From Amoebidium appalachense (lineage: Eukaryota > Protista > Ichthyosporea): a stretch of 64,000 bases of DNA. The position numbers and the translations under genes are program-made. The notes beneath the pieces are model-generated. The model was not told the origin of the DNA, ran no database searches, and saw nothing but the letters and a program-made list of their open reading frames with translations. The number at the start of each line of letters is the position of its first letter. The stretch's first letter is position 1. Positions 32,001-35,000 of the stretch are shown here, one piece after another. Location of the stretch: positions 2,656,342 through 2,720,341 of the forward strand of contig CAVNZM010000005.1 in the NCBI GenBank assembly GCA_963693365.1, given 5' to 3'.

Positions 32001-35000
32001 TTGGCCCCCTCCCCCTCACCTTCCCTCCTCCCCCCGGGCCTCCCTCCCTCCATTCCTTCCCAGACACGCTTACAACCATTGTGCTCCTCCTCCCCCCCCC
32101 CCCTCCCCCCTCCCCCTTCTCCCCCTCTCCCCCCATCCATATCCCCACTATGTGCCTGTGTCTGGATGGATGGCATTCCATGTCCTGTATCATGCTCCTC
32201 GTTGTGTCTTTTTACTATGCACGCGCTTGCGCACACGCACACACGACACACACGCGTGCGCGCGCACACACACACACACACACACACACACACACACACA
32301 CACACACACACACACACACACACACACACACACACACACACACACACGAGTCGCACTCTAACACCCCCATACCCCCACCTAGTTCTTGAAGCCAATGACA
32401 GCACTCTACGTGCGCTTGAGAGTCTCGAGGCCCACCTCAAGGCTGGGGGAGATGACAGCCCACCGGCCATAGACCAGAGGCTGGGCACTGCACCAAGCAG
32501 CACACACTACAGGGTGGGTACTTATACCCCTAGCCAGTGGGGTAAATTGGGCTAATAGCTGTAGGGCGGGGCGCCACTTATACTGCTTAGAACCGCTTGA
32601 TGTATTTTAAGCCACAATACGACATGTTGGATGTAAAGAATCTAGAAACGGTTAAAGATCATATTGTTATTTCGTTTCTTTTTCTTCTTTCTTTTTTTCT
32701 TTTTTTTTGGGTGTGCGCGCAGCGTGTGTGTATGTGTGTGTGTGTGTGAAGAAGGGGGAGGCAGGGGGGGAGGGAGGGGGGGGGGGGGGGGGGGGGGGCA
32801 GGGCCGATTATAAAATACCAGGAGGTGAGGTTAATGTTATCACATGGAACGAGGTTGGGTTGGGAGTTTCACGATAGAAGTTACAATCAACTTAGAGATG
32901 CATTCAAACGAAGCTTGCCTCAACCATCCGGTGGGTTTCGTCCCCACACATGTTTCTTTTTCTTCTCCCTACTCACACACACATGGGCAGGCTCTTCAAC
33001 GGCTGTATGGTGAGCGTGTGACGGAAGTAGTGATGGGGCTTCGTGCAAACCCCCATGCCGCTGTGCCTGTGGTACTCAGAAGAGTACGCCAAAAGGTTTT
33101 GTGCCTCCCCAACCCCCCTCCCCCCAAGGGGAACACACACACACACACACACACACACACACACACACACACACACACACACACACACATACACGTCTGC
33201 ACAACCCTTTCTCACATATGTTTGCCATGCCCCCCCCTCTCCCCCCCACTTTAACCCCCGGCCTTTCCCACTGCCCTTGCCTGCATAAGCAACCCTGCTC
33301 GTCTCTGATCAAGACGGGTGACCTATCCATGTTCAAGTGAAACAGTATCTGAGTTGGGTTTCGTTGACGAGGTGAATAGGTCGAAACTCGGGTACTGTGG
33401 ATGACGTGGGCCCCCCCTGAGGATGGGCTCTGCTTATTATGCATACTCTTTATGTATGGCTTGCATTCTGCATCGTGTTATCCGTTTGTTCTTGTGTACT
33501 TCGTACTTTTTGACGCATTCAAACCCCCCTTCCCCCCCAATCATGCATTTAGAGTCATCCATGCATCATGCACACACATAAACACCCAAGCACACACACA
33601 TGCAGGCATGCGCACACATGTAAACACCCATGCAAGCGCGCGCTCACACCCACACGTACAAATAGAGACTCCCGTACATCCCAAACACCGACACACCTAC
33701 CTACGCCTTTTTGCATGAGCACATATATACCTCTCCCTTATTGCTCTATTTTGTTCCTTGTGCATATGCCACCTGAAAGCACCATTCGACGTCACCCACC
33801 CAACCATTCCACGTTTATTCTGCCGGCTCGCTCCCTGCACACCTGCACAGAGGTTGCCAGGGAAACAAACAATACTTGTCACGGTTTTTTTCCTACCGAG
33901 TCATGTTGCCCCCCCCCCCCCCCCCCCCCCCCCCCCCCCCACACACACACACACACACATAGCAATAAGAATAATAATAATCATGATGATGATGATGATG
34001 ATGATGATGATGATGAAATAAAAACATTTTCATGTTCGGTGTACAAATTGTTTTTTTTTTTTTTTTTTTTGGCCCTTTCGTCGGTGTCATATTCTCACGG
34101 TTCATGTTTTGCTCCAGCAAGAGGACTGGCGGCGTGCACAGAAGGACATCAACCGGCAGTGCAGCGACACACAGGCACGGTGCATGCTCAAGGCACTGGA
34201 CTACCAGGCTGTGGCCTTCAAGGTAAACATTATCTCCTGCTAGTTCCAAGTCTATCTTGTCCTAGTGTCAGATACTTTAGTAAGGTTTCAAACACGCTCA
34301 ACCAACCACTGCTTCTGCCATTTTGGCGTTTCGGCGTCGAGCAGCCGATGCCACACACCAATCAGGAGACGTGGTCAAATCATGCCACATTGCCGAGGTG
34401 GATTATGGCGTCATGCAATTACAGTAAATGACCACGCATTTTTTCATAGGCTGGGCGCCAAAACGGCTGCATGACAATTGTGCACGGAATGACGTCATCA
34501 ATGTGGCTGGTCGTCCAGCCTAATATGGGAGAATCCGTGGTTAATTTAAGCTAGCTCGGAAACTTTGGCCTATATCAGTTCCAAATGTGTATTGGCTTAG
34601 TTTTCCTACTTGCACTGACCTGTGTTCGTCCACAGAACGGAGAGCGCAAGGCACTTAGTAGCCGTCAGCTAGTTGGTGAGGTGCAGGCCCGGCATGATGA
34701 GGGTGCTGGGGGTGTGGTTGTTGGTCTGGGCTGTGACCAGGTCATGGATGCCGTGCAGAGTATGCTTCTGTCTTCTCTACGGAGAGTACGTGCCCCCCCC
34801 CCCCCCCCCCCCCCCCCCCCCGCGCAAGAGTTTCTCTAGGTCAATGTGTACGGCCATACGTGCAAACATAGCACATGCTGGTGGTGCAATGCGACACCTG
34901 TCTAGTTGAACATGTGGCGGTATAGATCTTTGCAGGGGGATATTTGTTTCTCAAGAATGGTTGCACGCTTGTGTGTGGGCCAGTATGCGCAGATGTGTGA

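Follow-up and report, generated by a model that had tools for sequence, protein, structure and literature searches.

A putative S-G-C hammerhead with a split core in a repeat of Amoebidium appalachense

Described hammerheads and Penelope-like elements

Hammerhead ribozymes of types I-III are circular permutations of a three-way junction, and CChMVd carries an extra A at A9/G10.1. Type SGC hammerheads (HRIMA-1 and its variants) have their blocks in the order S-G-C, and their cleavage was shown in vitro (Eckert et al., 2023; PMC10085705). According to the available text of that study, they come almost solely from metatranscriptomes rather than from the genomes of known organisms, and block C is assumed never to be broken up by an insert longer than 1-2 nt. 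Among Penelope-like elements (PLEs), Naiad and Chlamys have been reported to be without canonical hammerheads, with some copies marked HHR_core or HHR_half_core; Chlamys prefer (C)n or (CA)n targets, and among their relatives are pLTR-forming, non-autonomous ones such as MRC1 (Craig et al., 2021; PMC8557442, available text).

Here we describe a repeat found in a 64,000-nucleotide stretch of the A. appalachense genome (the window). On balance, we think it probable that this repeat carries an S-G-C hammerhead whose core is opened at A9/G10.1, at a predicted four-way junction, and that it is a high-copy, likely non-autonomous PLE in which the ribozyme likely cuts tandem transcripts after GUU. Judged from its letters, the motif is real and conserved and probably catalytic. 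The split core appears new; the strand order itself is known as type SGC.

The motif seems type-SGC-like, yet it lacks the intact block C of that type. It shares the block order, the full core consensus, the mutually crossing helices and a helix that links the strand following 10.x to the one preceding 2.x (here helix K, with double changes at 5/8 pairs). Block C, uninterrupted in type SGC, is split here provided that stem II uses the covarying upstream strand and not the weaker, invariant alternative that exists downstream. Furthermore, the linker from S to G has 17-23 nt here and typically 3 nt in type SGC, the motif is ~155 nt long against ~80 nt, and the k-turn and stems IV and V predicted here have no counterpart in the available text of PMC10085705. 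Type-CSG hammerheads from the same source, and the C-S-G motifs seen by eye in seven Naiad tails, share the cyclic order, have the 10.x strand ahead of block S and possess an equivalent of helix K, but their block C is intact, unlike that of the window form. We infer that the window form may correspond to a C-S-G RNA with its two ends linked and a new opening made at A9/G10.1.

Two other systems are close in part, as far as their available texts go. The pseudoknot (PK) hammerhead likewise has its core in a pseudoknotted frame with an extra helix, but its A9 and G10.1 stay in one short stem with pistol-like connectivity, unlike the split core here (PMC11300833); the string 'permut' occurs nowhere in that paper. 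Non-LTR retrozymes and PLE minimal hammerheads are likewise PLE-linked, non-coding tandem units of a few hundred nucleotides with one hammerhead each, for which dimer activity and circular templates have been proposed (bioRxiv 10.64898/2026.07.22.740005; PMC4209133). Their motifs are of type I with a weak stem III, whereas stem III is long here and the order non-circular, and each unit carries an S-G-C motif in place of the type I hammerhead of a non-LTR retrozyme. The main text of the bioRxiv paper mentions neither SGC nor k-turn nor pseudoknot, and a literature search conducted largely without subscription papers and supplementary alignments returned no description of a split or k-turned hammerhead in PLEs.

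If correct, the proposed split would break the assumption of an indivisible CUGAnGA block, giving a permutation beyond the six enumerated, and would mean that a four-way junction can be accommodated at A9/G10.1 of the hammerhead core, which would be a new engineering port. It would make testable why Naiad and most Chlamys seemed to be without the ribozyme found in other Penelope-like clades, and it would show a eukaryotic genome to carry a non-circular hammerhead in many copies, the published ones being almost only from environmental RNA.

The motif and the repeat that carries it

Copy A1 opens with the 5' strands of closing helix P0 and stem IV, followed by hairpin V, the stem II 5' strand from G10.1, the 5' strand of helix K, the k-turn, the stem III 5' strand and UU (Table 1). 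After UU come the cut, a stem I strand, the linker, the stem II 3' strand, GAA, the stem III 3' strand, the k-turn partner, the helix K 3' strand and the other stem I strand; CUGAGGA, a single U and the 3' strands of IV and P0 complete the motif. The stem II strand lies ~100 nt 5' of CUGAnGA.

Table 1. Coordinates of the motif, its predicted parts and the repeat insertions in the window
Feature	Position	Strand	Details
Copy A1, whole split-core permuted hammerhead motif	33284..33437	+	
P0 and stem IV, 5' strands, A1	33285..33295	+	P0 33285-33291 with 33431-33437; IV 33293-33295 with 33425-33427
Stem V hairpin, A1	33297..33319	+	adjoins G10.1; representative pair probability 0.85-0.98 in nested folding
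Stem II 5' strand from G10.1, A1	33320..33326	+	pairs with 33376-33382; double changes at 2/5 pairs
Helix K 5' strand, 3-nt bulge, predicted k-turn G-A-A, A1	33327..33341	+	33327-33335 pairs with 33402-33409; bulge 33336-33338; G-A-A partners 33399-33401
Block S, A1	33342..33358	+	stem III strand (13 bp with 33386-33398), U16.1, H17, predicted cut, stem I strand 33356-33358
Block G, A1	33376..33398	+	stem II 3' strand, C11.1, G12-A15.1, stem III 3' strand
Block C minus stem II strand, A1	33414..33423	+	stem I strand 33414-33416, then C3-A9
Core positions by coordinates, A1		+	G10.1 33320; U16.1 33354; H17=U 33355; C11.1 33382; C3 33417; A9 33423
Predicted cut by coordinates, A1	33355/33356	+	
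Predicted cuts by coordinates, other copies	45172/45171; 47303/47302; 46850/46849	-	
Predicted cut by coordinates, C1	44583/44582	-	
Repeat insertion A1	33248..33532	+	5'-truncated; poly-C at both ends
Repeat insertion A2	44995..45586	-	intact motif 45090-45243; in intron of predicted minus-strand gene
B array	46642..47762	-	2.47 head-to-tail 453-nt units (0 and 1 differences); intact motifs 47216-47376 and 46763-46923; truncated 47669-47762
B copy, 5'-truncated	45606..45754	-	begins at block C
A copy, 5'-truncated	4046..4198	-	begins at block G
Copy C1 with 3' tail	44384..44654	-	motif 44498-44654; two broken pairs
Copy C2, 5'-truncated and internally deleted	46436..46599	-	ribozyme remnants only at ~46544-46599

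A sequence-only reading of this DNA had proposed a closing helix, stems I, II and III, the core motifs and the cut sites, and all of these hold in a coordinate check; stem I comprises 4 bp in B, against 3 bp in A and C. Its non-circular S-G-C order is borne out by the coordinates, which also agree with its claim that the 5' and 3' ends leave between A9 and G10.1. The full hammerhead consensus that it had recognised (C3-A9, G12-A15.1, U16.1-H17 and G10.1-C11.1) is present at every core position in 5/5 long copies, with only N7 free. Its statement that the motif fits none of types I-III is right in that the Rfam models do not match, the circularly permuted three-way junction of those types being absent, but the order had already been published and validated as type SGC (PMC10085705). 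One Rfam search gave no matches and another three sub-threshold matches, none of them a ribozyme; an Rfam scan gave no ribozyme among the 150 of 168 matches listed. The reading had also taken A9/G10.1 to tolerate insertions, which is documented for one or two nucleotides and not beyond in the available text of PMC10085705.

Scanned over the window, the stems I+II+III descriptor matches the four copies of A and B that are intact, as well as a single truncated B copy. C1, which has a C x U mismatch at 15.2/16.2, falls outside this strict descriptor. The sequence-only reading had assembled its C strands from two copies: C2 does have pairing letters at both positions broken in C1, but the window holds no intact C copy, given the mismatch in C1 and the internal deletion in C2.

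Poly-C flanks both sides of the repeat in 7/7 insertions, the 5' truncation points vary, and 3' ends are common within A/B and within C. The element's copy number is high, because 2437 contigs of run X2 and 5899 of run X5 map to it (two other runs gave 2 and 4). No ORF was found in the repeat or in the 306 nt upstream of it at A2, and the analysis points to a likely non-coding, non-autonomous Penelope-like retroelement of Naiad/Chlamys type. The likeness to Naiad/Chlamys, as these are described in the available text, consists of (C)n insertion bias, 5' truncation and partial tandems, all of which occur in the window. The host seems not to be one of the lineages given there. The 3' ends AACCCCC of the window elements are found also in two C. 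reinhardtii Chlamys tails, whereas the Naiad/Chlamys ORF (N-terminal GIY-YIG plus RT) was not seen in the window repeat. Membership of the Penelope-like clade is indirect, because no Penelope-type RT was found in the window, where the sole RT found belongs to a two-ORF LINE.

This LINE (52809-57180, +) was rejected as the RT partner of the repeat, since it has a (CA)n end and no sequence in common with the element. It is apparently intact, with ORFs of 394 aa and 1064 aa (RVT_1); 70% of ORF2 aligns to EukProt protein P0003 at 99% identity, which suggests a microbial eukaryote, and under E 1e-60 there is one further relative (46%).

A1 starts where the longer A element has an internal AACCCCC motif that resembles the element's own 3' end (33248-33260; 45279), and the sequence upstream of this start in the longer element is common in other runs. 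Contigs of X2 and X5 also join the element to an irregular TTAGGG-like repeat at 33384-33394, possibly by telomere addition or telomeric insertion. Among 18 of the 91 rows of run contigs listed, no 5' truncation lies at the cut 33356, and 5' loose ends recur at 33367-33371; this pile-up check is weakened by C microhomology, which drives junctions, and by the loss of rare forms from contigs.

The window contains spliceosomal introns and many poly-C and (CA)n tracts. The four exons of an unannotated, predicted gene at 44057-48537 (-) splice in frame. Between them, in three introns, sit the B array, C2, truncated B, A2 and C1, each sense-oriented; four of the long copies are among these, with the tandem B pair counted in. 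CG-1, TIG, kinase and ankyrin domains occur elsewhere in the window. The CG-1 and TIG exons of a CAMTA-like gene are at 1594-5295 (-), and the truncated A copy at 4046-4198 sits between them on the same strand.

Helices, covariation and alternative readings

Covariation across three subfamilies, claimed by the sequence-only reading, is present: over A2, B1 and C1, 21 of 40 pairs are invariant, four change on one side, 13 change on both sides and two are broken, both in C1. The tally rests on three subfamilies and on pairs picked from those same sequences, and is thus not a significance test. Double changes fall in stem I (1/3), stem II (2/5), stem III (2/7), P0 (3/7) and helix K (5/8), with one break within stems I-III, in C1, and covariation in stem IV (3 bp) is absent among the window copies. 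Motif identity between subfamilies is 81%, 65% and 65%, against 54-58% in the flanks. Stem I, of 3-4 bp, has energies of -3.9 and -4.4 kcal/mol. Nested folding, which is unable to show stems I or II, recovered P0, V, K and III in A and B (z -1.7, -3.0) and not in C1 (z -0.7); P0 had a probability of just 0.10-0.16 in A copies folded with 30-nt flanks.

The helices described by the sequence-only reading stand, but its fold lacked stems IV and V, helix K, the k-turn and the lengthening of stem III, and the reading noted neither the retroelement context nor a rival stem II strand downstream. Stem III extends via the k-turn into the covarying helix K. The k-turn is predicted from a match to consensus (PMC2790904) in A, B and C: a C helix, a 3-nt bulge, G.A and A.G, with 3b.3n being A.G in A and C and U.U in B. 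The two extra helices, IV and V, predict a four-way junction at A9/G10.1 in the structural model. A further hairpin, in which GGGCCC ahead of stem I would pair with GGGCUC, was set aside because helix K competes with it, C has a mismatch in it and, by eye, Naiad tails lack it. In X5, a contig over 33323-33420 has a differing G-block and helix K sequence and suggests a fourth subfamily.

Naiad consensus tails (PMC8557442 supplement, as available) were viewed by eye at 60 of the 81 places with a GAAA-block motif. Six of them have the split wiring, with IV directly after A9 and hairpin V directly before G10.1: three records from Acropora and two from Octopus, to judge by the order in the file, plus one unnamed part-12 record. 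In one Acropora record, stems I and II contain mismatches. Another seven tails show the intact C-S-G form with an equivalent of helix K. None of eight C. reinhardtii Chlamys tails available, also viewed by eye, has the core.

It could be asked whether the motif cleaves at all. A hammerhead-derived scaffold might be kept as a binding site for a retroelement protein or a k-turn-binding protein: the strongest covariation lies outside the core, in helix K and P0, the rod appears to keep the core halves apart, and intact sense copies sit in host introns, where efficient cutting might be expected to harm the host gene. Metazoan PLE minimal hammerheads are, moreover, reported to cleave poorly in vitro (PMC4209133, available text). 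We regard such a non-cleaving domain as unlikely, given that every catalytic position is kept with N7 alone free, that stems I, II and III carry double changes, and that the same core is kept in the available coral and octopus Naiad tails.

The motif could also be an ordinary type SGC hammerhead with block C intact, in which A9 is followed by 1-2 inserted nt and the downstream GGCUC serves as stem II, the upstream strand being a competitor or a switch. GGCUC forms 4 pairs in A, 5 in B and 5-6 in C, and in C1 it is the stronger strand (-7.1 vs -6.4 kcal/mol upstream). An extra U after the core is common among Hydra hammerheads, and by eye three phage loci (L003-L005) resemble type II hammerheads in which a single U follows the core and GGC pairs with GUC. 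However, GGCUC is invariant though its partner changes, and each change is followed by the upstream strand, which matches its partner through three sequence versions; the upstream strand proposed by the sequence-only reading is backed by these two double changes. GGCUC pairing also requires two G.U pairs, and in A and B the upstream helix has -8.5/-7.3/-8.5 kcal/mol vs -2.3/-2.3/-5.6 downstream, the downstream pairing being weak in A (-2.3). In the available Octopus and Acropora Naiad tails the strand after A9 is, by eye, unable to pair with the GAAA strand, while the upstream strand gives 6 bp in 4/5 records. An ordinary type SGC hammerhead is thus improbable, and a stem II formed by the upstream strand is preferred. 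Minor variants in X2 and X5 at 33324 and 33378, partners in this stem II, are unphased and may be B-family contigs.

That short motifs fell into this arrangement by chance in a neutrally spreading repeat is scarcely credible, for although there are three subfamilies only, the helices are short and the structure was derived from the same sequences, no more than 5/20000 shuffles with both core motifs fixed and the remainder shuffled pass the stems I+II+III descriptor (3/20000 for A2, 5/20000 for B1), 13 double changes face 2 breaks, and the descriptor matches 0/282 pattern-fetched loci bar one tandem canonical array.

Geometry, proposed mechanism and scans for relatives

In hammerheads, stems II and III stack coaxially (PMC4209133, available text). 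Helix K begins within 0-1 nt of stem II's far end, although it is attached to stem III at that stem's far end. A rough geometry model with A-form constants gives a shortfall at ideal fold-back of 11-26 A in the window families and 3 A in Acropora, whereas the Octopus and part-12 Naiad records, two of three Naiad examples, are reachable as single copies; melting helix K removes the shortfall. Because one copy appears unable to form all helices at once, either K would melt for cleavage or two copies would swap halves, a swap proposed in another form for PLE hammerheads in the available text of PMC4209133. Rod lengths of 13-14 vs 23-25 steps in different lineages are about one helical turn apart, as a phase-dependent two-copy fold would predict. 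From the model, we lean slightly towards two-copy cleavage over one copy with helix K melted.

In the proposed split-core mechanism, A9 would lead into IV and V into G10.1, so that IV and V would stack beside the stack of stem II and the core. Stem III would pass through the k-turn into helix K, which would play the stem I-II interaction helix. The bent rod would be too short for one core, and two neighbouring copies would therefore act together, the tip of one (S, G) docking on the base of the other (G10.1 strand, C). Tandem transcripts would be cut after GUU into unit-length RNAs, and each freed unit, its ends held together, would be circularised. A borrowed RT-endonuclease, primed at genomic C/G runs, would then copy the circular unit into truncated and more-than-unit copies; a circular-template model has been proposed for PLE tandems (PMC4209133, available text). 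When the cut-to-cut B unit is folded, stem III and K hold its ends, an arrangement that would be suited to ligation and to reverse transcription beyond one unit. We put forward only tentatively, as a possibility, the fuller picture of a hidden Naiad/Chlamys ribozyme, here in a microbial eukaryote, in which a four-way junction restores a core interrupted at A9/G10.1 and assembly takes place solely through an exchange of halves between two tandem copies across k-turned rods.

Relatives were also sought by pattern scans of viral contigs, metagenome contigs (29/64 parts) and prokaryote contigs (45/64 parts), which gave 282 loci with family-specific patterns that would miss distant relatives. None of these loci matches the profile or the split descriptor, except L032 by descriptor, which was rejected as a split-motif relative, being the tandem canonical array. 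L003, L004 and L005 (301-358) lie on phage contigs. L030 (659-1050) and L032 (~1450-1600) lie on metagenome contigs and comprise short tandem units with CUGAnGA and GAAA in canonical order.
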